A DNA stretch of 29,423 nucleotides. It comes from Clostridia bacterium (GTDB lineage: Bacteria > Bacillota > Clostridia > Peptostreptococcales > JAAYPU01). The notes beneath the pieces were generated by a model. It was given only the letters and a program-made list of their open reading frames with translations. It was not told the DNA's origin and ran no database searches. Every line of letters begins with the position of its first letter. Positions within the stretch are counted from its first letter, which is position 1. The translations under genes were made by a program, and so were the position numbers. This document shows, one piece after another, positions 1 to 23,091 of the stretch. Location: NCBI GenBank assembly GCA_028279945.1, contig JANQMT010000149.1, positions 1 through 29,423 on the forward strand. The letters are read 5' to 3'.

Positions 1-902
1 CACCGTTGATGTCGGCACAAATTGGTGTAGGCAATACGAAATTGGTCATGTATTCTAATTTAACTGGCAACATAATCAATGTAGTATTGAACTATGTGTT
101 GATATTTGGTAAATTTGGATTTCCTAGAATGGAGATGGCAGGCGCAGGTTTAGCTACGGTCATCGGTAATGTGGTCATATTTTTATTGTTGTTAAAATCA
201 GTTATTCGTGGCAAAAATGGCATCAATATTTTAAAGGGCAGTTGGAAATTTAAAAAAGGTGTCATGAAACCACTATTAAATATTGGCAGCAGTTCCTTGA
301 TGGAACACAGCTGGGAAAGGATTGGTCTGTTCATCTTTGCCAGACTCATTGCTGAACTTGGCACAGTTGCCATGGGGATACACCATTTTTGTATTCTTAT
401 TTGGGATCTGTACTATTACTTTGGCATGGGCATGGGCACAGCAAGTGCATCCTTCTCCGGTAGGAAGATAGGTGAAGGACGTAAAGATCTGGCCATTATT
501 TACACAAAGGTAGCCCAGCGTTCAGGATTGATTATTTCTATGATTGCCAGTGTCATATTTATATGGGTGCGTGAACCGGTTTTTGATTTTTTTGTCTCTG
601 ATTCTGAAGGCATTCGACTGGGAGTTGCAGTTATGGGTATTGTGGCGATGTTAATTATTCCACAAACCTATGCTCAAGTTTCTTCTGGGACTTTACGTGG
701 TGCAGGTGACAATCGATTTATAGCGGTTTATTTTTTGGCTGTCAGTGCTATACTACGGCCTTTGAGTGCGTATGTTTTTGCTCTTAGCTTAGGTTTAGGT
801 TTACCTGGAATGTGGTTGGCATTATTGCTAGATGAGAGTTTGAAAATGGTTCTTACTCGATATCGTATTAAAAAAGGAATTTGGTTGAAGATTGAATTTT
901 GA
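1..902 (+). CDS. MATE-family multidrug/oligosaccharidyl-lipid efflux transporter, C-terminal ~2/3 (5' end lies outside window)
   Basis: Open frame from window edge. Polytopic hydrophobic protein with MATE-like motif LRGAGDNRF and repeated TM helices. The ORF-track ATG at 6 is probably internal. Confidence 0.7.
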   Translation, partial: PLMSAQIGVGNTKLVMYSNLTGNIINVVLNYVLIFGKFGFPRMEMAGAGLATVIGNVVIFLLLLKSVIRGKNGINILKGSWKFKKGVMKPLLNIGSSSLMEHSWERIGLFIFARLIAELGTVAMGIHHFCILIWDLYYYFGMGMGTASASFSGRKIGEGRKDLAIIYTKVAQRSGLIISMIASVIFIWVREPVFDFFVSDSEGIRLGVAVMGIVAMLIIPQTYAQVSSGTLRGAGDNRFIAVYFLAVSAILRPLSAYVFALSLGLGLPGMWLALLLDESLKMVLTRYRIKKGIWLKIEF

Positions 903-1035
903 TATAAAATGTTTGTAGTTCAGCATTCTCAGAGATATTTGGAAAAGATGATATTTCTTTGTCCATTGATTGTATAAATACTGTGTAATTCTGGTGACGA
1001 AATGTGGTTAGGGATTGTTGCTCGAGAGTAATTTT

Positions 1036-1073
1036 GGGGTGAAAAATTGGCTGAAAAACGCCATTTTTGCCCC
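1036..1073 (+). other. Long imperfect hairpin inside 5' block (GGGGTGAAAAATTGGC / GCCATTTTTGCCCC)
   Basis: Near-perfect inverted repeat with one bulge. The equivalent position in copy 2 (4196-4227) also folds (GGGGCAAGAAATT / AATTTTGCCTC) using a different sequence. Confidence 0.4.
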
Positions 1074-1156
1074 TTTATAATGGGTAAAGATATAGATGAC
1101 ATAGAGGATTTGGGGTATGAAAAGCAAATATTAATTGATATGTGAATGTAAAAGAC

Positions 1157-1203
1157 GAAGCTTTGGTCAGTTAATGATTTAAAAGCTTCTTCTATTTTGT
1201 TGG
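1157..1203 (+). terminator. Terminator-like hairpin GAAGCTTT-N16-AAAGCTTC followed by TCTATTTTGTTGG
   Basis: 8-bp perfect stem plus T-rich tail. Copy 2 has a hairpin at the same aligned position with a different, compensating stem (4360-4410). Confidence 0.45.
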
Positions 1204-1268
1204 AAAAATTCAAATGACATCTTGTGTTTATAATTAATTAAAAATTTGATATAATTTGTAAAAATATA

Positions 1269-1297
1269 TTGGATATAATTGGAAATGGGTGTAGAAT
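1269..1297 (+). promoter_or_regulatory. Sigma-A-like promoter: -35 TTGGAT, 17-bp spacer, -10 TAGAAT
   Basis: Both hexamers and the spacing are conserved in copy 2 (4496-4524). The promoter sits about 95 nt upstream of the 1389 start codon. Confidence 0.5.
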
Positions 1298-1388
1298 GAA
1301 TTCAGGTGTAAGTTTGCAGATATTTAATTACGATTGAGTTATTAGTGTTTTGTAAATAATAGCGTTATGCAATATTGGAGGGGATTAT

Positions 1389-2138
1389 ATGAATGGGCAA
1401 CTTCATCATTTGATACAAGTTGTGGATACTTGTAGCAAATACTTGAATGGTAAAAGTCAAAATGTGTTAGATGATAAACATTATAGCTCGTTAGTATTTA
1501 TAAAGCAGAACGAAAATACAATTATCAAAAAATTAATGGGTAAGCCTACATCTGAACTAGTGATAGCTACTAAAATTTCAGAGTTTCAGAAATACTTGGA
1601 GAATAACAAATGTAAAAAAGTGTATATTCATTTATCAGTAGAAGAGGATGATATAAATTTGTCTGCATATGCAAATGGGATTGCTGGGCAACTTATGGTA
1701 TGTGAATTCAATAATTATATTGAAATATGGAGGAATAGTTTTAATTATAATGGTGAAAAGTGGGATGTAGTTTATTATATGATAGATCGTAGCAACAAAC
1801 AGTATAAACCTGTTAAAAGAAATCTGAAGGAAGAGTATATTAAATTGATTAATTGCTATGAATCATTAGAAGAATTTGCTTTGTTAATTGAACAAAAATA
1901 TTGGGCTGAGTTTTTTGAAAAGGGTAAAAGAAACTTATTGGATATTCCTGATTTAGAACGTAATGAAATAAACAAAGTAATACAGAATATCAAGTGGCCT
2001 TTTGGGGGTATGGGTTCATGGAATGATTCACCGCCATATTCTGCTCATGAAAAAGGATTGGATGAAGATTTTAAAGTGAAAAGTAATATGTTATACAATC
2101 AATTGCATGTTGTAATTGAAGCTATACTTAATATGTAA
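1389..2138 (+). CDS. Hypothetical cytoplasmic protein (249 aa), cargo of cassette 1
   Basis: Strong RBS TTGGAGGGG 7 nt before the ATG. Clean ORF with no recognisable family motif. C-terminal WPFGGMGSWNDSPPYS stretch noted. Confidence 0.6.
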   Translation: MNGQLHHLIQVVDTCSKYLNGKSQNVLDDKHYSSLVFIKQNENTIIKKLMGKPTSELVIATKISEFQKYLENNKCKKVYIHLSVEEDDINLSAYANGIAGQLMVCEFNNYIEIWRNSFNYNGEKWDVVYYMIDRSNKQYKPVKRNLKEEYIKLINCYESLEEFALLIEQKYWAEFFEKGKRNLLDIPDLERNEINKVIQNIKWPFGGMGSWNDSPPYSAHEKGLDEDFKVKSNMLYNQLHVVIEAILNM

Positions 2139-2143
2139 GCACC

Positions 2144-2218
2144 TGAATAACGCTGCATTTACCCACATACCTCTAGGTTGAGGATTAGCCCTTGTAGGTA
2201 TTACAGGTGGGGTTTTGA
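2144..2218 (+). repeat. Conserved structured 3' element, copy 1 (paralog of 5274-5342)
   Basis: About 70% identical to 5274-5342. Outer stem CCCAC(2162-2166)/GTGGG(2207-2211) co-varies with CCAAC/GTTGG in copy 2. Inner stem CCTC/GAGG corresponds to CACAC/GTGAG in copy 2. It ends in GGGGTTTTG. Confidence 0.55.
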
Positions 2219-2326
2219 TAATTGTCGGAAACGTTATAATGGAGATATCTGATCTGGGTTGGAAAGCTAAACTTGATAGTAAGAAATAAAAATAATAAAT
2301 AATTAAGGACTGGATAGAGGTAGAAT

Positions 2327-2872
2327 ATGAAGAAGAAAATTATAGTATTAGTTATTGTCTTGTTATTTTTGAGTTGTTCATGTAGTAAGCAAACTGAAGA
2401 CATTGAAGGTAATGGAAACGAACAAATCGACTTAGAATCAGTAGAAGATGGTAAAGAAAATAATCAAGATAATGAAGTAATAATATTTGATGAAGACGGT
2501 CAATATTTAGAATTATATTTAGAGGAAAAACCATGGATGTATATCGCAAATATCAAGGATATTCCAGAATTGTCTGAAGCGAATGAGGGTGGAGCAGATT
2601 ATGATCATGAAAATGGAGTGATAAGTTTTTCAATTACAAAAGCTACTGGAACGATGACTGGAGCAGTAGATGGCCCATGGGTTTTTGCAGAAGTTGATAT
2701 TATAAAAAAACAGGTATTAAAAAAGAAATTTGGTCCTGCTCCAGAATTTGATAATCCTAAATACAAAGAGTTTAGTGGAGAAATATTAGAAATTTCGGAT
2801 ACACGATTAACAGAGATTGCAAATTATTTTTATAGGATATTTAATGATAAAAGTTTTGAATGTATTAAATAA
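2327..2872 (+). CDS. Putative secreted/lipoprotein (181 aa), acidic
   Basis: RBS GGATAGAGGTAG. N-terminus MKKKIIVLVIVLLFLSCSCS is signal-peptide-like with Cys close to the cleavage region. Confidence 0.55.
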   Translation: MKKKIIVLVIVLLFLSCSCSKQTEDIEGNGNEQIDLESVEDGKENNQDNEVIIFDEDGQYLELYLEEKPWMYIANIKDIPELSEANEGGADYDHENGVISFSITKATGTMTGAVDGPWVFAEVDIIKKQVLKKKFGPAPEFDNPKYKEFSGEILEISDTRLTEIANYFYRIFNDKSFECIK

Positions 2873-3088
2873 TGGTATGAGCAAGTTGTTGAACATAGAT
2901 ATAATATGTTTTTTAAAGAACTTAATTTGTCTAAGAGCATAGTGATTGATGATTTAGAGAAAGCTGATCATGCTTTTAACTAAGGAATTGTCAGACGAAA
3001 GTGATAAATCTATAGTATCTAAAATTATCAGCAGAGAGAATATAGGAGTCGAGCTTCAAGAAGTAAAAAAGCATATAATGAAGTCAAT

Positions 3089-3560
3089 TTGTCAAGCCTG
3101 ACCCCTTGCTACTTAATAAAAATGCTTAATAAAAATGTTAGAATAAAAGTTAAGGAATCAAGAGATAATTATGTTGAGAAAAAATATGAATATAAAAACT
3201 TTGTTGTTGGAACAGCGATAACGTTAACTAGTTTTTATTTAGGATGCTGCATCAATTGCATATACTGTTGTATCGGGAGTACAAGTGATTCAAGAAAATG
3301 CAGAAATTGCAAAAGATGCAGAATATTCCTATTGGGGAGCTAAAGAAGGTTACGCATATGATACGACACTCTATAATGATGATGTATTGGTGTATAATAA
3401 TTCTGAAGGATATGATAAGTATGGGAATTGGACTTGGATAGAGTCACCACGTTCTGATGCGTATAGCGTTAGCAATACTAAAAAAATAAACAAAACAATT
3501 GAGCTCTATAATGCATGTATAGTAACTTATGGATATTGTGAATTATATTCTCCAGATTAA
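3089..3560 (+). pseudogene. Small secreted-type protein gene split across three frames (two +1 shifts at T-runs); possible pseudogene or sequencing-error-affected gene
   Basis: Frame 1 reads MLRKNMNIKTLLL then stops. Frame 2 reads KNFVVGTAITLTSFYLG. Frame 0 is open from 3243 and reads DAASIAYTVVSGVQVIQENAEIAKDAEYSYWGAK through to 3560. Joined, they form a plausible signal peptide plus mature protein. The Cys-rich tail of track ORF 3089-3343 is an out-of-frame artefact. Confidence 0.35.
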
Positions 3561-3585
3561 ATTTAAGTGCTTGAAGGTGGTTTAG

Positions 3586-4077
3586 TTGGATTTATTTATA
3601 TTGCAGTCTTTTTTAATTTTAGCAGTGTGTATTCCTTTAATTGATAATATACTTCACACAGGAAAAGTGAGTTATAAGTTTAGGAGAAATATACTTTTTG
3701 CTCGCCCAATACCTTGTGCAATGATTGGATTTGAGCTGTTTGTATTTGCTAATTTATTAATAGTTGATAAAAATATTTTATATAGTGTTGATTTTGAGTT
3801 AGTAAGTACGATGATTATAACCGTAATACTTATTGTATTTACGCTCATTGAATATGCAAAAATTTCAGAAGGGGTATATTCTAATGGATTAGTCCTCAGA
3901 GGACTTTTTTATAAGTGGAAATTAATCCACTCGTATGAAGCTATTGTTACAGACAGTGGAACGGTTATCTTAGATCTTTGTTTTATTACGAAAACAAAGA
4001 CCGTGTATAGAAGGTTTAATATTCATAAAACTGATTGGAACCATATGGAAAATATATTCGAAAAAAATATTAAGTAA
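3586..4077 (+). CDS. Small integral membrane protein (163 aa, TTG start)
   Basis: RBS GAAGGTGG 5 nt upstream of the TTG. Three to four hydrophobic helices. Its 3' third (3847-3960) is duplicated at 9760-9873. Confidence 0.5.
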   Translation: MDLFILQSFLILAVCIPLIDNILHTGKVSYKFRRNILFARPIPCAMIGFELFVFANLLIVDKNILYSVDFELVSTMIITVILIVFTLIEYAKISEGVYSNGLVLRGLFYKWKLIHSYEAIVTDSGTVILDLCFITKTKTVYRRFNIHKTDWNHMENIFEKNIK

Positions 4078-4087
4078 AGTAGTATGG

Positions 4088-4133
4088 AAACTCTTTGGAT
4101 ATAAATTATACCCAAAGAGTTTTTCTTATTTCT
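4088..4133 (+). terminator. Rho-independent terminator (AAACTCTTTGG-N13-CCAAAGAGTTT then TTTTCTTATTTCT)
   Basis: Perfect 11-bp stem immediately after the 4077 stop, followed by a U-rich tract. Confidence 0.7.
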
Positions 4134-4359
4134 GTAAGCGTAAATTACTAGATGAAAGCTCCATAGGTATAAAAGCCAGTGTTTGAGAGTCTTTTGGGGC
4201 AAGAAATTGGCGTGAAAATTTTGCCTCTTTAAAATGGGTAAAAAAATAGATGACATAAAGGGATTTGGGGATGACAGGGTGGAAATAGGAATTATTTACA
4301 AATGAAGAGAAAATATTCATTTGAGTTTGAATAAAAATTCATAGATGTTGGATAAGAAA

Positions 4360-4410
4360 AGGTGAAATTTTGGTCAAATAATGACTTAATGACTTCGCCT
4401 ATTTTGTTGA
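4360..4410 (+). terminator. Terminator-like hairpin AGGTGAA-N27-TTCGCCT followed by ATTTTGTTGA
   Basis: Positional homolog of 1157-1203. The stem is kept by compensating changes, including one G-U pair. Confidence 0.4.
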
Positions 4411-4495
4411 GAGAATTAAAATTAGAAAAGGAGAATGCATTAATCATTGTCTATTTATAGTATTTGAAAAAAATGAGATGATTTGTAAAAATGTA

Positions 4496-4524
4496 TTGGA
4501 TATAATTAACTGAGGGTGTAGAAT
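4496..4524 (+). promoter_or_regulatory. Sigma-A-like promoter: -35 TTGGAT, 17 bp, -10 TAGAAT (copy 2)
   Basis: Same hexamers and spacing as 1269-1297. Confidence 0.5.
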
Positions 4525-4650
4525 AAATTAAGTTATAAGTTTGCAGCTATTCAATGATGATGGAGTTATTAGTGTTTCGCAAATAACAATGTTATATGCC
4601 ATTTATATTTTTATAATTCTCAGATTTCATTAAAATAAGAGGGTGGATTT

Positions 4651-5217
4651 GTGAAAAAGTATTTTAATAAAAGTACCATACTTATTATTTTAACTATTAT
4701 ATTTTTAGGTTTTGTATTTTACTATAGTTTTTATAATATTGAAAATAATGTAGCTCAAATTGAGGAGAGTATTATAGAATTGATTAGTTTAGAAAAAGAA
4801 AGGGTTACTTTTCAAGCGAGTATAGAAATTGATAATAAAAAGTTTGTTTTATTTACTTTTGATGATAATGCTATGGGATATTCAAAGTTTCAAAAAGGAT
4901 TAAACAATAAATATAAAATAGAAAGTGTAGGGTATGAAATCGATAAAATTGAACACAGAGCAATAGATATAAAGGATAAAAAGTATTTTATTGTGCTAGG
5001 TAGAAATAATGATATGAGAATAAAAAGTATAAAAGCTATTATAGCTGGTAATGAATATATGCTTGATATACAACAAAATGAACATAGTATATCATATAAT
5101 AATGAATACTTTATTACATATTGTGAAGTGTTAAATGAAACTGAAACTGTGTTTCCACAAAAGTTTATATTATATGATATGAACAATAACGATATTACTG
5201 AGCAAATATATAGATAA
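4651..5217 (+). CDS. Hypothetical membrane-anchored protein (188 aa, GTG start), cargo of cassette 2
   Basis: RBS AGAGGGTGG. N-terminal TM/signal anchor ILIILTIIFLGFVFYY. No similarity to the cassette-1 cargo. Confidence 0.55.
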   Translation: MKKYFNKSTILIILTIIFLGFVFYYSFYNIENNVAQIEESIIELISLEKERVTFQASIEIDNKKFVLFTFDDNAMGYSKFQKGLNNKYKIESVGYEIDKIEHRAIDIKDKKYFIVLGRNNDMRIKSIKAIIAGNEYMLDIQQNEHSISYNNEYFITYCEVLNETETVFPQKFILYDMNNNDITEQIYR

Positions 5218-5273
5218 GATCATAATTATGTTTAAAAAATGGAGTAAGCTAATAGCATTATAAATTAAACGGC

Positions 5274-5342
5274 ATATAACACTGCATTTACCAACATGCA
5301 CACAGGGTAAAGGTGAGCTACAGTAGGATTTATCGGTTGGGT
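5274..5342 (+). repeat. Conserved structured 3' element, copy 2
   Basis: See 2144-2218. Confidence 0.55.
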
Positions 5343-5443
5343 AACTTAAGTGTTGTATTCTATTCATGGCGCGCGTCGTTAAATAAGATAACAGCGCAAG
5401 GATTCCGCAGTGTGAAGCGCTGGCTGGATAAAATCAGCATTAA

Positions 5444-7745
<2,302 letters not shown>

Positions 7746-7763
<18 letters not shown>

Positions 7764-7786
7764 AAGTTGCAAACTTTTTGTCTTTT
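7746..7786 (+). terminator. Rho-independent terminator (AAAGTTTGCAAC-N9-GTTGCAAACTTT then TTGTCTTTT)
   Basis: Perfect 12-bp stem spanning the stop codon of 6753-7763, followed by a T-tract. Confidence 0.65.
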
Positions 7787-7920
7787 AAATGGCAATTTAT
7801 TCCCATATACTAAAATTGTTCTTGATTTTTATAGCAGAGATTTCTGAATGGTCTCGCGGTGCCTTTGATAAAATGAGATAAGGTATACCAGAAAGATGGA
7901 ACCCGTAGAACTGAAGTGTT

Positions 7921-7948
7921 GGAGGTTCGATTCCTCTATCGCCAAATT
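7921..7948 (+). other. tRNA 3'-end-like fragment (T-arm GGAGG-TTCGATT-CCTCT plus acceptor-like ATCGCCA)
   Basis: Canonical T-stem-loop, but no foldable D arm, anticodon arm or matching 5' acceptor strand within 100 nt upstream. Confidence 0.35.
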
Positions 7949-8010
7949 GGTGATTAGCTCAATGGTAGAGCATTCAGCTGATAGTATGGGGTTCGATTCC
8001 CCTTCAAGTG
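7948..8010 (+). tRNA. Degenerate tRNA-like element or pseudo-tRNA (canonical D-arm TAGCTCAATGGTAGAGC and T-arm GGGG-TTCGATT-CCCC, but no anticodon loop: TTCAGCTGA leaves no loop)
   Basis: D-arm and T-arm are textbook, but the anticodon stem-loop and acceptor pairing cannot be formed by hand. Needs tRNAscan-SE or ARAGORN. Confidence 0.3.
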
Positions 8011-8198
8011 TGGTTACTTGTTGCTCGAAAGAGCTCCCGACTTTTAATCGGAAAAGAAGATAAGTAAGAACTATTTTAAGAACTCTCAGCAGCAGTTTAC
8101 TGCGCTAAGTTTTAAGCTTTGCAGTGTGTGGATACCGGTCAAAATACGTATATTCTTGCTATGTATTTTACTTCTTAATTATATGGTTATACCTAAAA

Positions 8199-8243
8199 CT
8201 AAGAAAAAAATCATAGCAACAATATATTAGTTTTTTTCTTAAG
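8199..8243. promoter_or_regulatory. Inverted repeat CTAAGAAAAAAA-N21-TTTTTTTCTTAAG upstream of the SPFH gene
   Basis: 11-12-bp inverted repeat, possibly a protein-binding site. Confidence 0.25.
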
Positions 8244-8332
8244 CAACATTCCGCCTAAATCTTAGGAGAGTTTTTAAAAAGTTCATAGGACAGTAATGGT
8301 AATATTTATATAGATTTGAAAGGGTGATTTTA

Positions 8333-9439
8333 ATGAAAATTATTGTGAAAAAAGATGAAAGAGGGCTTCTTTTTAAAGATGGCAATTATATGATGTGTTT
8401 AAAGGCCGGAAAACATAGGTTAAATCCTTTTGGAAAATATAGTATCCAACTGGTTGATGTGAATGAGTCTTTTGATACAATGGGTAAGAACATCAATATC
8501 TTTTTAGACGATGAAGAACTTTTAAAAGAGTTAACTGTAATAGATGTTAAGGATAATGAACTGGCACTCCACTTTGAGGATGGGAAATATATTGATGTTT
8601 TAAAATCAGTAAAAGGTGCTTACTGGAATGTACTCAAAAAACATGATTTTCTAGTTATTGATTTAAAGGATACGAAAGTGAAAGACGATATAGATGCTTC
8701 AATTTTAAGTAATCCAAAGGTGTGTGAATATTTAAACTGCTTCAATGTTGAAAGTCATGAAAAAGGTCTATTGTATTATGATAATGTGATACAAAAAGTA
8801 TTAGATCCTGGAAAATACTTTTTCTGGAAAGGACCTACCGATGTTACCGTTAAAACTGTAGATATGAGACAGCAACAAATTGGGATGGCTGGGCAGGAAC
8901 TGATGACGGAAGATAAAATTACGCTTCGATTGAATTTTGTATGTCATTATAAAGTTACAGATCCTTTGAAAGTAGTTGAAATTAATTCCTTTCATGAACA
9001 ATTGTACATAATTTTACAGTTAATCTTGAGAGAATACATTGGATGCGTTAAGCTAGATGTTCTTTTAGCAAAGAAACAAAATATAGGAAGTTATGTTCTT
9101 GAAAGATTAAAAGAAAAGAATAGTGAATTTGGAGTAGAGTTTATTTATGCGGGGTTAAAAGATATCATATTGCCAGGTGACATAAAAGAAATTTTAAACA
9201 CCGTATTAATAGCAGAAAAGAGAGCACAAGCTAACGTTATTACAAGAAGAGAAGAAGTTGCCTCAACAAGAAGTTTGTTAAACACGGCAAAGCTAATGGA
9301 TGAAAATCAAACCTTGTATAAATTAAAAGAGCTGGAGTTTCTAGAGAAAATATGTGAAAATGTAGGAAATATTTCTATAGCAGGAGGCGGCAACTTGTTG
9401 GAACAATTAAATGATTTGCTTTCAACTAGAAAAAGCTAA
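8333..9439 (+). CDS. SPFH/band-7 (stomatin/prohibitin/flotillin/HflKC) domain protein, cytoplasmic, with an internal ~150-aa insertion
   Basis: RBS AGGGTGA 5 nt before ATG 8333. N-terminus IVKKDERGLLFKDG...QLVDV. C-terminal core LRLNFVCHYKVTDPLKVV...AGLKDIILPGDIKEILNTVLIAEKRAQANVI matches SPFH. There is no N-terminal TM segment. Confidence 0.6.
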   Translation: MKIIVKKDERGLLFKDGNYMMCLKAGKHRLNPFGKYSIQLVDVNESFDTMGKNINIFLDDEELLKELTVIDVKDNELALHFEDGKYIDVLKSVKGAYWNVLKKHDFLVIDLKDTKVKDDIDASILSNPKVCEYLNCFNVESHEKGLLYYDNVIQKVLDPGKYFFWKGPTDVTVKTVDMRQQQIGMAGQELMTEDKITLRLNFVCHYKVTDPLKVVEINSFHEQLYIILQLILREYIGCVKLDVLLAKKQNIGSYVLERLKEKNSEFGVEFIYAGLKDIILPGDIKEILNTVLIAEKRAQANVITRREEVASTRSLLNTAKLMDENQTLYKLKELEFLEKICENVGNISIAGGGNLLEQLNDLLSTRKS

Positions 9440-9457
9440 AAAAAGGGTAATAATACA

Positions 9458-9703
9458 GTGATAGAACTAAGGGGCAGATACAACACAGTAAAAGTATTTA
9501 CCCATAATATAGAAGAAAAGGCTGCAGAGCAAATACATGAGCTTTGCAGTCAAAAAATAGAAGCTTTAGCTTATATCTGTCCAGTTTGTTTTTGTGAAAT
9601 AGACCTTTTTATAACATGCGAAGATGAACCGAGTGATCAAAATCATGGTCTAACTTTATTGGAGGCAAAAAATAACTATATTAGATTAGGGCGCATGCTG
9701 TGA
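9458..9703 (+). CDS. Small hypothetical protein (81 aa, GTG start) with CPVC...C...C cluster
   Basis: RBS AAGGGTAA. Sits 19 nt after the SPFH gene. Confidence 0.35.
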   Translation: MIELRGRYNTVKVFTHNIEEKAAEQIHELCSQKIEALAYICPVCFCEIDLFITCEDEPSDQNHGLTLLEAKNNYIRLGRML

Positions 9704-9759
9704 AGATATGGTAAGCCGTGTAAGGCAGCCTAAAGTTGATGAATTAAATGGCTTGGAAT

Positions 9760-9873
9760 ATTGAATATGCAAAAATTTCAGAAGGGGTATATTCTAATGG
9801 AGTAGTCCTCAGAGGATTTTTATATAAGTGGAAATTAATCTACTCGTATGAAGCTATTGTTACAGACAGTGGA
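9760..9873 (+). repeat. ~114-bp direct repeat, about 95% identical to 3847-3960 (internal fragment of membrane-protein gene 3586-4077)
   Basis: Read directly from sequence, roughly 6 mismatches. The embedded ORF 9748-9975 is a remnant with no TM part, so likely a gene fragment. Confidence 0.75.
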
Positions 9874-9897
9874 GGGGAATCATCTTTTAGCGTCTTC

Positions 9898-9930
9898 AAA
9901 TGCTGTACTCGAAAAGTGAGTACAGCATTT
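9898..9930. terminator. Bidirectional intrinsic terminator: perfect 13-bp inverted repeat AAATGCTGTACTC-gaaaagt-GAGTACAGCATTT
   Basis: A-tract upstream and T-tract downstream. It lies between the convergent 9748(+) remnant and the 9962-10708(-) gene. Confidence 0.65.
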
Positions 9931-9961
9931 GATTTAATGAAATATAGAGGGGAGAATTTGA

Positions 9962-10837: not shown

Positions 10838-10866
10838 TTGACAAATGTCATAAATTAATTTAGAAT
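10838..10866 (+). promoter_or_regulatory. Promoter (-35 TTGACA, 17 bp, -10 TAGAAT) overlapped by palindrome TGACAAATGTCA (10839-10850)
   Basis: Perfect 12-bp palindrome, one of three copies in the window. A degenerate second half-site TTGACATTTT lies at about 10802. Confidence 0.55.
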
Positions 10867-10916: not shown

Positions 10917-11699
10917 ATGTTAGTTAATTTGAATGGTAAGGTCTGTGTTGTTACAGGTGCAGCTAGAAGTATAGGTCTGGGTATTGCAGAGAAGTATTGC
11001 GAAGACGGAGCTAAGGTAGCAATGATCGACATTAATCCTGAGGTTGTATATGAGGCGGATAGAATTTCTAATGAATATAAGGCAGATGTAAAAGGCTATG
11101 TATTAAATATTACTAATAGAGAAGAGGTACTCAAATGTTTTGATAAGATTGTTGAAGAGCTTGGTCCTATATTTGCCTTGGTTAACAATGCAGGAATTGT
11201 AGATCAACGTTCCTTTGAGGAAATCACCGAAGATATGATTAACAAACAGATGGCAGTAAATGTGAATGGAACGCTTTTCTGTACCCAAGGTGCAGTAAAA
11301 AGTATGAAGGATCAGAACGAAGGCAGAATTATAAATTTTTCATCCAAATCAGGTAAAACAGGGTCAGCCCTAATGGCCCATTATTCTGCAGCAAAGGGAG
11401 CAATTATTGCCCTTACACATGCCCTTGCATTTGAATTGGCTTCCGATAATATTCAAGTGAATTGCATCTGCCCCGGTATAACTGATGCTACGGGTGTTTG
11501 GAATCAAGTAAGTTCAGGATATACAAAAAACCTAAACTTGTCTCGAGAAGAGGTCATAAAGCAATTTACAGCAAAAATTCCAATGAAGAGACTAACAAAT
11601 ATTGAAGATATTGTTGAGATGGTTTACTTCCTTACTCTAAAGGGAGATTATATGACCGGTCAAGCATATAACATTACAGGAGGAAGGGAGGTGCACTAA
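10917..11699 (+). CDS. SDR oxidoreductase, sorbitol-6-phosphate 2-dehydrogenase (SrlD)-like
   Basis: GKVCVVTGAARSIGLG, GRIINFSSKSGKTGS...YSAAK and C-terminal TGQAYNITGG resemble SrlD. Probable start is ATG 10917 rather than TTG 10884. Confidence 0.8.
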   Translation: MLVNLNGKVCVVTGAARSIGLGIAEKYCEDGAKVAMIDINPEVVYEADRISNEYKADVKGYVLNITNREEVLKCFDKIVEELGPIFALVNNAGIVDQRSFEEITEDMINKQMAVNVNGTLFCTQGAVKSMKDQNEGRIINFSSKSGKTGSALMAHYSAAKGAIIALTHALAFELASDNIQVNCICPGITDATGVWNQVSSGYTKNLNLSREEVIKQFTAKIPMKRLTNIEDIVEMVYFLTLKGDYMTGQAYNITGGREVH

Positions 11700-12746
11700 A
11701 TGAGTCATATGATAGGGAAGTGTGTGAAATATTATGCCCCAATGGATGTTCGAATTGAGCCGTTGATGGAAATACCTCAGATTTGTGATGGAGAAGTTTT
11801 GATAAAAATCGAAGCCTGTGCCATCTGTGGAACGGATATAAAATCCTTTGTCAATGGCAATCCCAGAATCATGCCTCCAAAGGTAATGGGGCATGAGCTT
11901 TGTGGAAAGATTGTGGCAATGGGCAGTGGCGTTGATAACTATAAAATAGGTCAGAGGGTAACGATGGCTACTACCATAGGCTGCGGCAAATGCGACTACT
12001 GCAAAAGTGGAAAGACAAATCTTTGTAGAAGTGCAGAGGCAATGGGCTTTCATTACCCCGGGGCGATGGCACCTTATGTGGTTATACCGGAAAAGGCGGT
12101 AAGACAAAAACATTTGGTGGATGTGGGAGATCTGGATGTCGTTATTGCAAGTCTAAGCGAGCCCCTATCCTGTGCTATGAATAATATAAGTCGTGTACCA
12201 GATGAAGCACTGGGAAGTGTACTTGTTATTGGCCTTGGGCCACTTGGAATGCTGCATGCTGTTTCCTTAAGGGAAAAAGGAGTCAAAAACATAGTGTGCG
12301 TAGCAAGACCGGGTAAAAGAGCGGATATGGCAAAGCAATTGGGCTTTGATATAGTGCTTTCGCCTCATGAGATAGATGAAAAATATAAGGAGCTTACAAA
12401 TGGCGAAGGATTTGATTTGATTATCATAACAGCTCCCAGCAACGAGATGCAAGGGAAGGTACCAATGTATGCTAAGAAAGGAGGGTACGTATCCTATTTT
12501 GCCAGTCTCCCTGTTGGAGATGAAATGCTGACAATGAACAGTAGGATTATCCATTATAATGAATTGGTGCTTTACGGTACTTCGGATTCTACAGTACAGC
12601 ACGTGAAAGCAGCAGTTCACCTTTTAAGAAAAAATCCGGAAGCCTTCAAGCCTTTGATTACACACGTTATGCCATTTGAAGATTTTCATAAAGCTATGGA
12701 TGAGATAAAGTTGAGAAATGCCGTTAAAATAGTACTTGTTCCATGA
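11700..12746 (+). CDS. Zn-dependent medium-chain alcohol/polyol(-phosphate) dehydrogenase
   Basis: CAICGTDIK, GHE, CGKCDYCKSG structural-zinc motif, GLGPLG NAD site. The start abuts the upstream stop. Confidence 0.85.
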   Translation: MSHMIGKCVKYYAPMDVRIEPLMEIPQICDGEVLIKIEACAICGTDIKSFVNGNPRIMPPKVMGHELCGKIVAMGSGVDNYKIGQRVTMATTIGCGKCDYCKSGKTNLCRSAEAMGFHYPGAMAPYVVIPEKAVRQKHLVDVGDLDVVIASLSEPLSCAMNNISRVPDEALGSVLVIGLGPLGMLHAVSLREKGVKNIVCVARPGKRADMAKQLGFDIVLSPHEIDEKYKELTNGEGFDLIIITAPSNEMQGKVPMYAKKGGYVSYFASLPVGDEMLTMNSRIIHYNELVLYGTSDSTVQHVKAAVHLLRKNPEAFKPLITHVMPFEDFHKAMDEIKLRNAVKIVLVP

Positions 12747-12941
12747 TACTATGGGTAGTGTAAAGTAAACTATAAATTACTGGCGACTGACGCCACCTTT
12801 GACAGTATAGAAAAACAATGCTCTGTAGTTTTTACCGATAGCGAAGAACTCAAGAACAGGTAGAGAAATCGACTTCAGACTATAGCACTTTAACATTGTT
12901 TTTCTGTACCATCAAGAGTAAATACGAGGGGGAATAAGTAA

Positions 12942-14933: not shown

Positions 14934-15794
14934 ATGGAAATGAATAAGTTGATTGAGGCCATTACCCAAGAGGTATTAAAAGAACTGGGTGAAGACGACC
15001 TTTTTAAAGTCGGCGGTATCTCCATCTCAAAGGAGGTGCTACCCAACGGTGTTGATATAAACAATCTGGCGAAGACAGTAGACCACACTGTTTTAAAGCC
15101 AGACACGACTAGGAACACTATAGAAAAATTTTGCAAAGAAGCAGCGGAATGGAGGTTTGCATCCGTCTGTGTGAATCCAACCCATGTAAAGCTGGCTGCA
15201 AGCCTTTTAAAGGAGACTGATGTAAAGGTATGCACCGTAATAGGTTTTCCTTTGGGAGCTAACACACCCTTTGTGAAAGCAATGGAAGCAAGGGATGCAA
15301 TAGCCAATGGTGCACAGGAGGTTGATATGGTGATTAACATAGGCGCCTTGAAGGATGGTGAATATGATCTTGTTTCAAAGGACATAAAGGCTGTCGTGGA
15401 TGCAGCGGCCGGTCAGGCGCTGGTAAAAGTGATTATCGAGACCTGCCTGTTGACAGAGCAAGAGAAGATAAAAGCCAGTTTATTGGCTAAAAATGCAGGA
15501 GCAGATTTTGTAAAGACTTCTACCGGAATGAGCACCGGAGGTGCTACGGTGGAAGATATCGCTCTTATGAGAAAAACAGTAGGCCCCCAAATGGGTGTTA
15601 AAGCTTCCACAGGAGTAAATAATCGTGAAATCGCACTGAACCTGATAAGAGCAGGAGCGACAAGGCTGGGTACTAGCAAGGGTATCATCATTCAAACCGG
15701 ACAAAGCCCTGAACAACCAAGCTGTGTAAACTGCGGCAACTGCAAATCAGGCTGTCCTACAGGAAATGCACATGTTGTGAAAGACAACTATTAA
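14934..15794 (+). CDS. deoC: Deoxyribose-phosphate aldolase (DERA) with N-terminal amphipathic helix and C-terminal CxxCxxCxxxCP tail
   Basis: [10 protein letters not shown] and MGVKASTG (the two catalytic Lys regions), TVIGFPLG. N-terminal [15 protein letters not shown]-terminal [12 protein letters not shown]. Confidence 0.85.
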
Positions 15795-15798
15795 AATA

Positions 15799-17292
15799 AT
15801 GTCAGCTGAAATAGGGGATGTGAATAATATGGTTGTCAATGAAATTGATCCGGTGAAAAGGTCCGTAAGAGAAGCCAATAAACTGATGGATGAAGCTTAT
15901 GAAGCTCAGAAACTGATAGCTGACTATGACCAGCAGAGAATCGATAGAATTGTTGCGGCAATGGTCCATGCAGGCTATGAGAATGTAAGGAAATTGGCTT
16001 ATATGGCCGTTGAGGAATCCAAAATAGGTGTTGCAGAAGACAAGGTGATTAAAAATGTGTTTGCAACAAAAAATATTTATGAATATATCAAGGATATGAA
16101 AACTGCTGAAATCATTAGTGAGGACAGAGAACAAGGGATAATAGAGATTGCAGCTCCTATGGGTGTCGTAGTAGGATTGATTCCCACTACTAATCCTACC
16201 TCAACCGTAATGTATAAGGCAATCATATCAATAAAATCAAGAAATGCCATCGTTTTATCCCCTCATCCAAGATCGGTGAGATGCTGTATGGAAGCTGCAA
16301 GGATTATGGAAGAGGCTGCTATTGCAGCCGGAGCGCCAAAGGGAATCATCAGATGCATGTCCATATGCTCTAAGGATGCAACCGACACACTGATGCACCA
16401 TCCAAAGGCAGCGGTCATATTGGCTACAGGCGGTAGTGCTATGGTTAAGGCAGCATACAGCTCAGGTACACCAGCATATGGAGTGGGACCGGGAAATGTT
16501 CCGGCTTTTATAGAACGGTCTGCAAATATATCTGATGCCGTCAGCAAAATATTTAAAAGCAAAACCTTCGATAATGGTACCATCTGTGCTTCGGAGCAGG
16601 CTATCGTAACAGAGGCTGTTATTGCTGAAAAAGTAAAGGCTGAGGTAATAAAAAGAGGCGGATATTTTGTTGTTGGTTCAGACATGGAAGCTCTGGACAA
16701 AACCATCATACTTCAAGATGGAGGGGTTAATCCGAAGGTAGTAGGTCAATCCCCCACAGCCATAGCTAAATTGGCAGGGATTGAAATACCTGAGGGAACA
16801 AAAATTATCTGTGTAGAGCTAAAGGGAGTAGGAAAGAAATACCCTCTTTCGGCAGAAAAGCTTTGTCCTGTATTGGCGTTCTATGTTATAGACGATTGGG
16901 AAGCTGGCTGTGAGCGGTGCATTGAACTGCTGAATTATGGTGGTCTAGGGCATACTATGGTGATACATTCACACAACGATGCAATCATAAGGGAGTTTGG
17001 ACTGAAGAAACCGGTTTTTAGAATCTTGGTAAATACGCCTTCCTCTCAAGGGGCTATAGGATATACCACCGGTCTCGCACCGGCTCTGACCCTAGGCTGC
17101 GGCACATGGGGAGGCAGTATCACCTCAGACAATGTTTCGCCCTTGCACTTGATAAACAGAAAGCGGATCGCATATCATCAACCTGCAAGTGAAGAGAAGG
17201 CAAAGTCTAAAGGTACTAGATATGTATATACATTGACTGAAATAAATAAGGCTATAGATAATTATAATAAAGGAGGCTATTGGAATGAGTGA
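15799..17292 (+). CDS. CoA-acylating aldehyde dehydrogenase (PduP/EutE family)
   Basis: [10 protein letters not shown] catalytic Cys, [23 protein letters not shown]. The alternative start ATG 15829 is possible. Confidence 0.85.
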
Positions 17293-17596
17293 AACAATAG
17301 GCATGATAGAAACAAAAGGCTTGGTAGGAGCAATAGAAGCTGCCGATGCAATGGTAAAAGCGGCAAATGTTCAATTGATGGGAAAGGAAATCGTGGGCGG
17401 TGGATTTGTAATGGTAATCGTAAAAGGAGATGTGGGAGCAGTTAAGGCTGCCACAGATGCAGGTGCTGAAGCAGCCGGAAGAGTAGGCGAACTGAAGTCC
17501 GTTCATGTGATACCACGCCCGCATAATGAGGTTGCAGTGATACTTCCCAAATACGAGACTGTTAAGGCCGGACCAAAAACAAAAGCAACGACTTAA
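17285..17596 (+). CDS. BMC hexamer shell protein (BMC-H, PduA/EutM family), copy 1
   Basis: [25 protein letters not shown]...GDVGAVKAA...HVIPRPH. Confidence 0.9.
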
Positions 17597-17637
17597 TATG
17601 GATAGCCACGTAGTTGAAAGATAGGAGGTAAAATATA

Positions 17638-17907
17638 ATGAGTGAAGCAATTGGAATGATTGAAACCAAAGGCTTGGTTGGAGCCATAGAGGCAGCAGAT
17701 ACTATGGTTAAGGCTGCCGGTGTCAAACTAATAGGTAAGGAATGTGTTGGAAGTGCTTTGGTAACGGTTATGGTAAGAGGAGACGTAGGAGCGGTTAAAG
17801 CTGCTACCGATGCAGGTGCAGCAGCGGTACAAAGCGTTGGAGAGTTGAAATCCGTTCATGTGATTCCAAGGCCTCATGCTGAGGTAGAATCCATATTACC
17901 AAAGTAG
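17638..17907 (+). CDS. BMC-H shell protein, copy 2
   Basis: Same signature. RBS GGAGG. Confidence 0.9.
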
Positions 17908-17944
17908 TATTATGTTTGAATAGATGAATTAGGAGGGTTTTAAT

Positions 17945-18217
17945 ATGGAAAATGCATTGGGAATGATAGAGACAATCGGTGAGGTAGGAGCCATAGAAGC
18001 AGCAGACGCTATGGTAAAGGCTGCTAATGTAAAGCTTATGGGCAAAGAGAAGATAGGCAGCGGCTATGTAACAGTAATGGTAAGAGGTGATGTGGGTGCC
18101 GTTAAGGCTGCAACAGAAGCCGGTGCGGCAGCTGCGCAAAGAGTTGGGGAGCTGAAATCCGTTCATGTGATTCCAAGACCTCATAAGGATGTAGAGAGCA
18201 TATTACCTGAAAAATAA
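17945..18217 (+). CDS. BMC-H shell protein, copy 3
   Basis: Same signature. RBS GGAGGG. Confidence 0.9.
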
Positions 18218-21773: not shown

Positions 21774-21802
21774 TTGACAAATGTCATGAGATTATTTATA
21801 AA
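21774..21802 (+). promoter_or_regulatory. Promoter (-35 TTGACA, 17 bp, -10 TATAAA) overlapped by palindrome TGACAAATGTCA (21775-21786)
   Basis: Second copy of the 12-bp palindrome, upstream of the regulator gene. Confidence 0.5.
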
Positions 21803-21920: not shown

Positions 21921-22883
21921 ATGGACGCAAAATTTGATATTTCACTTATGGTTAAGGTTGCACAAATGTACTATATGGATGAAATGAAGCAGGAAAAAAT
22001 TGCAAAGGAGCTTCAGATTTCCAGGTCGCTTATTTCAATGATTTTGACAGAGGCTAAGGACGTAGGTATCGTCCAAATTACAATCAAAAATCCTCAACTC
22101 AATAATGATGAGCTTTCCAGAGAGTTTGAAAGTAAGTTCAACCTCAAAAAATGCATTATTGTGCCCACGGCTGTTCAGGATCCTAATACACTGAGAAAGC
22201 TGGTGGCACAGAGAGCTGTAGATGTATTTAATCAAGAAATAAAAGAATCATCTAATGTTGGTATTTCATGGGGTAGAACCTGCTATGAGTTTATAAACCA
22301 ATTTGTAAGTGAATCAGTTTATAAGAATGTTTCTGTTGTACCATTAATAGGAGGAAGCAACCAGACGGCACATTATTTTCAATCCAATGAAATGGTACGG
22401 CGTTTTGCTGAGAAGCTTGGGGCAACCCCTCATTTTATCTATGCACCCAGCTTGAATTCATCCATTGAAGAAAAACTGCTTTTTAAAAAAAGCTCAAATA
22501 TGCAGGTGATACTGGAGAAGTGGGCTGATATGGATATCATTGTGGCGGCTGTTGGGACACTTCCTGATTTTAATTCCCATGAGCGTGAAACTTATATCGG
22601 AGAATCGGAGATATTTAGAATCCTTGAAAAAAGCGAAGCTGTGGGGGATATTTGTGCAAGGTATTTTGATAGGGATGGTCAATTTATCGAGGACAAATAC
22701 TTTGAAAGAATTCTTGGAATATCCCTTGATGAAATTAGAAGAGCGCATACAACCATTGGGTTTGCTATAGGATTAGAAAAGGTAAATGCCATACTTGGAG
22801 CATTGAAAGCCAATATTTTCAACATTTTTATTACTGATGAACAAACAGCAAAAAATGTATTGAAGGCTGAAATACAAAAATAG
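21921..22883 (+). CDS. SorC/DeoR-family sugar-phosphate-responsive transcriptional regulator (Bacillus DeoR-like)
   Basis: N-terminal HTH VKVAQMYYMDEMKQEKIAKELQISRSLISMIL, sugar-binding domain motifs GISWGRT, VVPLIGG, GDICARYFD. Clearly alignable to B. subtilis DeoR from memory. Confidence 0.85.
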   Translation: MDAKFDISLMVKVAQMYYMDEMKQEKIAKELQISRSLISMILTEAKDVGIVQITIKNPQLNNDELSREFESKFNLKKCIIVPTAVQDPNTLRKLVAQRAVDVFNQEIKESSNVGISWGRTCYEFINQFVSESVYKNVSVVPLIGGSNQTAHYFQSNEMVRRFAEKLGATPHFIYAPSLNSSIEEKLLFKKSSNMQVILEKWADMDIIVAAVGTLPDFNSHERETYIGESEIFRILEKSEAVGDICARYFDRDGQFIEDKYFERILGISLDEIRRAHTTIGFAIGLEKVNAILGALKANIFNIFITDEQTAKNVLKAEIQK

Positions 22884-22946: not shown

Positions 22947-23062
22947 GGGAGGCATGTTGCCCAGCCCATGGCTTTATCTCAGAAAAGAGCCGTGACAAAA
23001 TTTATGAAATATTCCAAACATTATATTGACATATGTTATGGATTTAGTTATAATTAAGAAAA

Positions 23063-23091
23063 TTGACAAATGTCATGTAAAAATTTAATAA
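23063..23091 (+). promoter_or_regulatory. Promoter (-35 TTGACA, 17 bp, -10 TAATAA) overlapped by palindrome TGACAAATGTCA (23064-23075)
   Basis: Third palindrome copy. A degenerate copy TGACATATGTTA lies at 23023-23034, 41 bp upstream. Confidence 0.5.

Follow-up and report, generated by a model that had tools for sequence, protein, structure and literature searches.

Integrons are the classic gene-capture system of Proteobacteria. Their tyrosine recombinase, IntI, folds one strand of an attC site into a hairpin and cuts between G and TT (written G/TT below, the slash marking the cut), and a cassette is excised as a circle or inserted next to a promoter. The attC hairpin, of about 57-141 nt, consists of an R box, unpaired spacers, an L box, one or more extrahelical bases and a variable loop; clusters of at least two close attC sites with no integrase nearby are termed CALIN. 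The pdif modules of Acinetobacter plasmids, in turn, are bounded by conserved 28-bp XerC/XerD sites. As defined in the literature, an attC site has the order R''-L''-loop-L'-R' and only its AAC and GTT triplets are conserved (PMC4889954, PMC7923331). Large surveys found one complete integron and a few CALIN in Firmicutes (PMC4889954, PMC9024848), and group IIC-attC introns and IS1111-attC insertion sequences are known to target attC sites (PMC3001079, PMC7923331). The present analysis concerns 29,423 nucleotides of a Clostridia bacterium (GenBank assembly GCA_028279945.1, contig JANQMT010000149.1; hereafter the window), in which two modules carry different genes between similar flanks. Judged from their sequence, both modules are probably integron-type gene cassettes with attC-like sites.

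Each module consists of an upstream block, a gene and a downstream element. The genes are a 249-aa open reading frame (ORF) at 1389-2138 (cargo 1) and a 188-aa membrane-anchored ORF at 4651-5217 (cargo 2). Comparison of the two proteins by BLASTP gave E 0.03 over 21 residues, and profile-profile comparison with hhalign, using family alignments of 18 and 40 sequences, gave a probability of 0.07%. Remote homology, which would have spoken for an old tandem duplication, is ruled out by these two comparisons, and the cargo proteins are unrelated as the original prediction had held. Its preference for cassette exchange or a small recombining unit over gene duplication is supported, the cargo being non-homologous and the flanks recurring beyond the window; the presumed exchange unit has to be redrawn, since it would comprise the gene plus the 3' element (cassettes 1 and 2 in Table 1) and the 5' block lies outside the cassette.

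Similarity between the modules ends at GTTAT 5' of the gene and resumes at ATAAC 3' of the gene (AAC at 5278-5280 in module 2; the other breakpoints are given in Table 1). On their sequence, these boundary triplets are taken to be the conserved GTT and AAC of integron attC sites. The same site family and boundary rule are found in four unrelated low-GC contigs, L004, L005, L020 and L027, of which L020 came from scanning metagenomes for the core of the 3' element and the other three via homologues of cargo 1; the GTTAT and ATAAC boundaries themselves recur in the inter-cassette repeats of L004 and L020, and likewise in a class 1 integron from a Klebsiella plasmid that served as positive control.

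The cargo-side sequences at the two breakpoints are inverted repeats of each other. In cassette 2, GTTATATGCCATTTA (4591-4605) pairs with TAAACGGCATATAAC (5266-5280) at 14/15 positions. Since integron recombination takes place between G and TT, an integrated cassette begins (TTRRRY...) with the outer half of its own attC stem. This pairing was assessed in ten cassettes from five contigs: at each start, the 13 positions after GTTAT were compared with the reverse-complemented 3' end of the same cassette (cassette 1 was entered with a start 2 nt too early). Nine of the ten match their own 3' end at 8-12 of the 13 positions, against 4.7 +/- 1.6 for non-own pairs, and none of 20000 permutations reached the observed sum of own-end matches. 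In the control, own-end pairing was 10/12 for the aadA1 cassette and 12/12 for qacL, and the sites of both are spaced AAC-5 nt-L''...L'-6 nt-GTT. A 2-nt mismatch, as a rule CA facing CA, recurs in the terminal stems of the Clostridial family at positions 10-11, counted from the G of GTT, and 7 further pairs come after it; this is seen in L004, L005, L020 and L027 and at 4600-4601 / 5270-5271 of the window. The family stems extend over ~18 nt, compared with ~12 nt in the two class 1 controls. Longer terminal stems had been considered as a unique feature of the family, a proposal that is weakened by the pairing of class 1 cassettes over ~12 nt.

It is clear that a conserved 3' element follows each gene, as originally claimed: 2147-2213 and 5276-5342 align without gaps at 46/67 identical positions, where the next-best 67-mer in the surrounding AT-rich island reaches 34, and the core 22-mer is identical at 20/22. 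The second of these elements can be drawn as an attC-like site (site 2, Table 1) whose first half reads R'' ATATAAC+ACT, spacer GCAT, L'' TTACCAAC and a 39-nt loop, and whose second half reads L' GTTGG(G)TAA, in which a single G bulges out, spacer CTTA and R' AGTG/TTGTAT. The stems are a 10-bp R stem and an 8-bp L stem with the bulged G, separated by a 4/4 internal loop; the class 1 control sites are built on the same plan. Site 1 still has the R'', the GCAT spacer and an L stem in which the same G is bulged. A descriptor scan of the window returned 8 matches with 5274-5358 the best, the scan being crude and too unspecific as a statistical test. Over their first 20 nt, the Clostridial sites are alike to class 1 attC at 10-13/20 positions.

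The related contigs extend this picture. L005, a contig of 29% GC with four same-strand ORFs, has in front of its cargo 1 homologue an element of 87 nt (IG1) that is a canonical attC hairpin, with R'' GCCTAAC, AACA, L'' TGTTTGC(A)GAC with a bulged A, a hairpin loop, L' GTCGCAAACA, CAAGAC and R' GTTATGC; as DNA it folds with z -6.0 on one strand and -8.0 on the other, and the CAAGAC before its GTT resembles TCAAGC, the last spacer of the class 1 controls. L004 holds five same-strand cassettes, carrying a kinase-like APH gene, a GNAT gene, a PIG-L deacetylase gene, an unknown gene and a cargo 1 homologue. These are separated by repeats of ~210 nt that start ATAACACTACATCTG and end GCTTCCG/TTAT, and every one of the cassettes has its own terminal inverted repeats of 18-27 nt. 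A viral scan with the end of the L004 repeat gave four matches, all by chance in coding DNA. The original prediction had left it to further searches whether the flanks are confined to the window; they are not, as L020, a 35% GC JGI metagenome contig, has the 3' element behind yet another unrelated gene, the third, which codes for a protein with a restriction endonuclease (REase) fold. L020 881-926 and site 2 are 89% identical over 46 nt (E 5e-12), similarity running on for ~110 nt. The inter-gene element is present twice in that contig, the copies being identical only up to GTTATA, and an Rfam search of L020 gave no match.

L027 belongs to a cultured organism, Natranaerovirga pectinivora (Clostridia, Lachnospirales). 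Its cargo 1 homologue is bounded by GTTAGCAGACATATATAA... and ...TTATATACATCTGCTAAC, is preceded by a non-coding region with a terminator and a promoter, and is followed by an attC-like hairpin (z -2.9). A group II intron (within 10968-12873) starts right after the GTTA of this hairpin. The sites of L004, L020 and L027 share the same R/spacer/L base with loops of 170-250 nt, and the long sites of the family (205-290 nt) have a conserved internal core.

Homologues of cargo 1 thus occupy cassettes in L004, L005 and L027. Its family comprises 36 homologues with a common C-terminal motif, FGGMGSWNDSPPYSA. Cargo 1 itself has a weak match to DUF6966. Its AlphaFold model is confident (pLDDT 89); a Foldseek search of it against the PDB gave nothing below E 0.01, the weak matches being NTF2-like folds. 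The cargo 2 family has 196 homologues of ~180 aa and is without a Pfam family.

Several observations weigh against the integron-cassette reading. There is no recombinase among the ORFs of the 29-kb window, in agreement with the original prediction, and no integrase in the window, L004, L005 or L020. Near the related cassettes a single tyrosine recombinase was seen, a Xer/IntI-like protein of 282 aa in L027 (gene at 15192-16040). Its match to TIGR02249, 197 bits where the cut-off is 265, falls into two stretches and leaves out the middle of the profile; the protein lacks the IntI middle segment and adjoins an IS91 transposase. No homologue of the 5' block was found in the other cassette contigs, and some related sites, at 205-290 nt, exceed the usual size range of attC. 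The fold of site 2 is no more stable than that of shuffled sequences (z 0.1 and -0.2). In site 1, R' is degenerate at the homologous position, a possible R' ACG/TTATAA lying 12 nt further on (2231-2239), and cassette 1 is the exception in the pairing comparison, with ~7/18 positions complementary when counted by eye from a start at 1364. Taken together, the degenerate R' and this low terminal complementarity mark cassette 1 as eroded. A match equal to the 14/15 repeat of cassette 2 was found somewhere in 7/60 shuffled windows, so that it is its position and the family-wide pattern that make this repeat count. Finally, a sister strain, the Clostridia bacterium metagenome-assembled genome (MAG) GCA_022360735.1 (98% identical; contigs L008 and L014), has the same cassette 1, its contig ending at window position 4434 inside block 2, and no gain, loss or swap of a cassette at G/TT was seen in this one strain.

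The 5' blocks are paralogous. BLASTN of either against the window gave the other copy as its sole significant match, with 1150-1368 and 4357-4595 72% identical (E 5e-32) and 1024-1115 and 4185-4270 80% identical (E 3e-16). In a global alignment, 253/347 columns are identical (73%), with indels of 53, 20 and 6 nt. Upstream of ~1024/4185 no alignment was better than shuffled controls, and the blocks are therefore ~345 and ~410 nt long; the conserved upstream block of the original prediction is real, and its estimated length of ~450 nt was too great. The blocks look non-coding, since the ORFs on their minus strand are without a Pfam match and do not keep their frame from one copy to the other. 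The lack of a Pfam match to these ORFs also led to the rejection of a pseudogene or an intI remnant as the origin of the block. In each copy a short ORF begins at a conserved ATGGGTAAA (1080-1145, 21 codons, MGKDIDDIEDLG...; 4234-4305, 23 codons, MGKKIDDIKGFG...); it is probably untranslated because it is without a Shine-Dalgarno sequence and the 53-nt indel falls inside it.

Two terminator-like hairpins are found in each block (Table 1). The GC-rich hairpin 1 folds as RNA at -18.2 kcal/mol in copy 1 and -10.6 in copy 2, with sequence and stem both kept, while the stem of hairpin 2 differs on both strands between the copies (GACGAAGC and GCTTCTTC against GGTGAA and TTCGCC). The promoter-like site lies inside the best-conserved stretch of the block (26/27 identical), and its function and use as a promoter are predicted from the sequence. 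A leader of ~70 nt follows and ends AGCG/TTAT in block 1 and AATG/TTAT in block 2. The last ~55 nt lack an AAC-bearing R'', and their 3' half, T(C/T)G(C/T)AAATA....G/TTAT, aligns with the 3' half of the L005 IG1 attC (TCGCAAA.A....GTTAT); GTTTGCAG is also present, by eye and outside the computed alignment, in the L'' of that canonical attC. The block end at 1312-1368 does not fold as single-stranded DNA. Read in this way, the block would be a non-coding unit that has a promoter, is insulated by terminators and is joined to what is left of a decayed attC. As it ends in a decayed attC, each cassette would stand behind an attC-type junction, in an array-like arrangement. Three readings of the block can be offered, namely an ORF-less promoter cassette, a platform like attI/Pc, or a duplicate of one such junction.

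Searches for the block elsewhere were negative. It has no homology to the promoter region upstream of the L027 cassette, and BLASTN of the block and related elements against phage and plasmid collections gave no match, on which ground a phage or plasmid origin was set aside. Exact-pattern scans with the promoter core gave one chance match, in a high-GC genome, and none in viral contigs. Rfam returned nothing at the gathering score for the whole window, and within 850-5500 nothing below E 5 except a chance small RNA (sRNA) match at E 1.6. Single-sequence RNA folds of the leaders and 3' elements were no better than those of shuffles, and a structured leader or 3' untranslated region (UTR) was rejected as a candidate for this reason.

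Table 1. Positions in the window of the two cassettes, their attC-like sites and the elements of the 5' blocks.
Feature	Position	Strand	Remarks
Cassette 1	1365..2233	+	249-aa ORF + attC-like site; breakpoints G1364/T1365 and AAC 2149-2151; eroded
Cassette 2	4592..5352	+	188-aa ORF + attC-like site; junction G4591/T4592; alternative right end G5378/T5379
attC-like site 1	2145..2241	+	R'' GAATAAC(GCT), spacer GCAT, L'' TTACCCAC, loop, L' GTGGG(G)T
attC-like site 2	5274..5358 (85 nt)	+	minimum-energy DNA fold gives the attC layout
5' block, copy 1	1024..1364	+	homology to 4185-4591; apparently non-coding; last base is the G of the G/TTAT junction
5' block, copy 2	4185..4591	+	hairpins ~4196-4237 and 4361-4409; promoter-like site 4497-4524; decayed attC end 4539-4595
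Hairpin 1 then TTTATAAT, terminator-like	1036..1081	+	copy 2 counterpart ~4196-4237
Hairpin 2 then conserved run CTATTTTGTTG, terminator-like	1154..1202	+	copy 2 counterpart 4361-4409
Promoter-like site, TGGATA-16-TAGAAT	1270..1297	+	consensus scan + alignment; copy 2 at 4497-4524
Decayed attC-like 3' part	1312..1368	+	L''-like GTTTGCAG(A), L'-like TTTTGTAAATA, AGCG/TTAT; copy 2 at 4539-4595

Other explanations can be put forward for the two modules. They may descend from an old segmental duplication of a promoter and leader with a terminator-like tail, the gene between having been replaced by ordinary recombination, homologous or illegitimate, with no site-specific system. There are just two copies in the window, at 73% identity, their conservation is about that of neutral drift, with longest exact runs of 14-15 nt, and indels relative to L008 of the sister strain lie, by eye, at short direct repeats, which indicates that illegitimate recombination is active here. 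Such a duplication is nevertheless quite unlikely, as it leaves unexplained why homology stops precisely at GTTAT and ATAAC, the pairing of cassette starts with their own 3' ends across five contigs, and the recurrence of 3' element and boundary rule behind genes, and in contigs, that are unrelated. Alternatively, the modules could have been mobilised by a recombinase other than IntI, whether Xer-dependent, as with pdif or CTX-phage hairpin sites, or through small elements with terminal inverted repeats, in which case the resemblance to attC would be convergent. The failure to find IntI agrees with this, as does the fact that the nearest recombinase, in L027, is Xer/IntI-like without the IntI insertion; so do terminal stems of 18 nt rather than the 12 nt of the class 1 controls and their recurrent mismatch at positions 10-11. 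Cassette ends such as TTATGCGAAAT may resemble Xer-arm sequences. The repeats adjoining the cargo are, however, cassette-specific rather than a conserved binding arm, which argues for recognition of structure, as by IntI; the boundaries show by eye no dif-like 11-6-11 palindrome, there are no target-site duplications, and L005 IG1 and class 1 attC have the same layout even to the spacer before GTT (CAAGAC and TCAAGC). This second explanation is therefore considered unlikely.

The flanks could instead be RNA elements, a shared leader or riboswitch that pairs with the 3' UTR and controls the translation of two co-regulated genes or their processing by RNase III. Pairing between the end of the 5' UTR and the beginning of the 3' element is indeed possible (duplex energy -19 kcal/mol for module 1, -24 for module 2), and a shared promoter region suggests co-regulation. 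Yet no Rfam family comes below E 5 (the chance sRNA match aside), the folds of leader and 3' element are at shuffle level, conservation reaches ~250 nt upstream of the promoter, and the pairing rule holds in arrays with a different upstream element, all of which makes this explanation very improbable. Equally, the inverted repeats might be the ends of an invertible segment that a distant invertase flips relative to a fixed promoter, as an on/off switch; repeats of 15-28 nt do flank cargo 2 with the promoter just outside them. Against such a switch, a single orientation, unbroken through the repeats, is present in the assemblies of SRR20820732, SRR20820734 and SRR20820735 and in the second strain, and the repeats differ between the loci, unlike the targets of a single invertase; it is hardly credible here. 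Overall, a Xer/pdif system, a transposon-like element with terminal repeats, a regulatory RNA and an invertible switch each fit less well than integron cassettes.

The modules lie in an AT-rich island (900-9960, ~30% GC; the remainder of the window is ~40% GC), flanked by a MATE transporter gene and a short-chain dehydrogenase gene. Between the modules, where the original prediction counted three small genes, ORF calling gives four, of 181, 43, 91 and 163 aa. PHROGs and PADLOC searches near the modules matched only WYL regulators and an SPFH protein. At 5462-7763 are three ORFs with matches to models of WYL/WCX-type regulators; the first two, of 245 aa and 154 aa and 100 nt apart, look like a single split gene. 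Next come an SPFH/Band 7 gene (8324-9439) and a small Cys-rich CPCC gene (9458-9703). Regulators of the WYL kind are often found with defence islands. The island also contains a 114-nt direct repeat, 96% identical, at 3847-3960 and 9760-9873. It is the C-terminal part of a DUF5673 membrane-protein gene (3586-4077), present a second time as an orphan piece where the island ends on the right, and public assemblies break at both copies; as it brackets cassette 2, the WYL pair, the SPFH gene and the CPCC gene, it suggests that this segment arrived by recombination.

Relative to the window, L008 of the sister strain is without 2572-2739, a 168-nt deletion inside a lipoprotein gene, and without 2866-3556 (691 nt), by which the 43-aa and 91-aa ORFs are gone; the flanks of the 691-nt deletion share ATTAAAT, and it therefore looks microhomology-mediated rather than site-specific. 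Positions 1-660 of L014 join the window at ~9682, to the left of which is a gene absent from the window. The gene is a member of a 307-aa family with the labels transposase or PIN-domain protein; probably it was inserted there, which would also account for the assembly break.

Outside the island, the window is made up of a microcompartment locus and a sugar-utilisation locus. Within these, a 28-nt motif, TTGACAAATGTCAT..., is present in four intergenic copies (10838-10865, 21774-21801, 23026-23053 and 23063-23090), which may be a shared promoter or an operator for a SorC-type regulator (21921-22883). Three tandem paralogous genes for microcompartment shell proteins at 17284-18213, with 71-74% DNA identity, are an ordinary gene family expansion.

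Returning to the integron-cassette reading, the cassettes would have come in through a tyrosine recombinase that recognises structure and works on folded attC sites. The 5' block would serve as a Pc/attI or as an ORF-less cassette with a promoter, shielding the cassette against transcription from upstream and providing for its expression. The cassettes would now be at least partly fossilised in a variable island. A recombinase presumably acts, or once acted, on these sites. The attC-like sites are 3.0 kb apart without a nearby integrase, and only site 2 is intact; since site 1 is eroded and no integrase is near, the two units now appear to be largely fossil. It could further be proposed, doubtful as this is, that Clostridia have an integron-like lineage of their own, with long-stemmed attC-like hairpins, a Xer-like recombinase without the IntI domain (such as the 282-aa protein of L027) and 5' blocks that act as portable expression platforms. 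If true, this would extend structure-specific cassette recombination beyond IntI and help to explain the apparent absence of integrons from Firmicutes. The presence of a family of attC-type cassettes in five low-GC contigs suggests that cassette-based shuffling operates, or once operated, in Clostridia, with a cargo that across the family includes small proteins of unknown function, resistance-type enzymes and a nuclease-fold protein. Specific sites and junctions are now at hand, together with candidate genomes for a search for the recombinase and one case of a cassette that has a promoter-bearing spacer to itself.

The locus can finally be set beside the known systems. Elements that target attC have counterparts in the family, in the group II intron after the attC-like hairpin of L027 and the IS110-family transposase after the last cassette of L004; neither is present in the window. 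The L027 intron matches Rfam group-II-D1D4-6 (128 bits), encodes a TIGR04416 reverse transcriptase and has the same orientation as the cassettes, whereas group IIC-attC introns are normally on the bottom strand. The IS91 transposase and recombinase genes of that contig (region 14060-16040) are ~1.3 kb beyond the second cassette. In L004 the transposase gene (4987-5994) comes directly after the last cassette, and it belongs to the IS110 family, one branch of which, IS1111-attC, targets attC sites.

As in pdif modules, unrelated cargo lies between inversely oriented recombination sequences that recur in different contexts; unlike them, the repeats here are cassette-specific beyond GTTAT and the boundaries have no dif-like 11-6-11 site. 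The 5' blocks resemble a Pc/attI platform in that the promoter-like site points into the cassette and the block ends at G/TT. They differ from it in being without a divergent intI, in being two and paralogous, and in having an end that is homologous to the 3' half of an attC (L005 IG1) and not to an attI. Immediately ahead of the junction there is an inverted AAC/AAT...GTT pair 3 nt apart (in block 2, ATAAC-AAT-GTTAT), which may be likened to the attI1 simple site.

The closest known systems are integron cassettes, CALIN in particular. From integron and CALIN cassettes the locus differs in its Clostridia MAG host; in that IntI was not found in the window, L004, L005 or L020; in the family stems of ~18 nt with their 2-nt mismatch and in some sites of 205-290 nt; and in the solitary cassettes of the window, each behind its own promoter-bearing block of 345-410 nt rather than a single attI. 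With integron and CALIN cassettes it shares one gene per cassette, short UTRs and GTT/AAC boundaries, sites of the form R''-spacer-L''-variable loop-L'-spacer-R' with a bulged base, a cassette start complementary to its own R'', same-strand arrays in the related contigs, and a promoter-like site upstream of the cassette (PMC4889954, PMC9024848).

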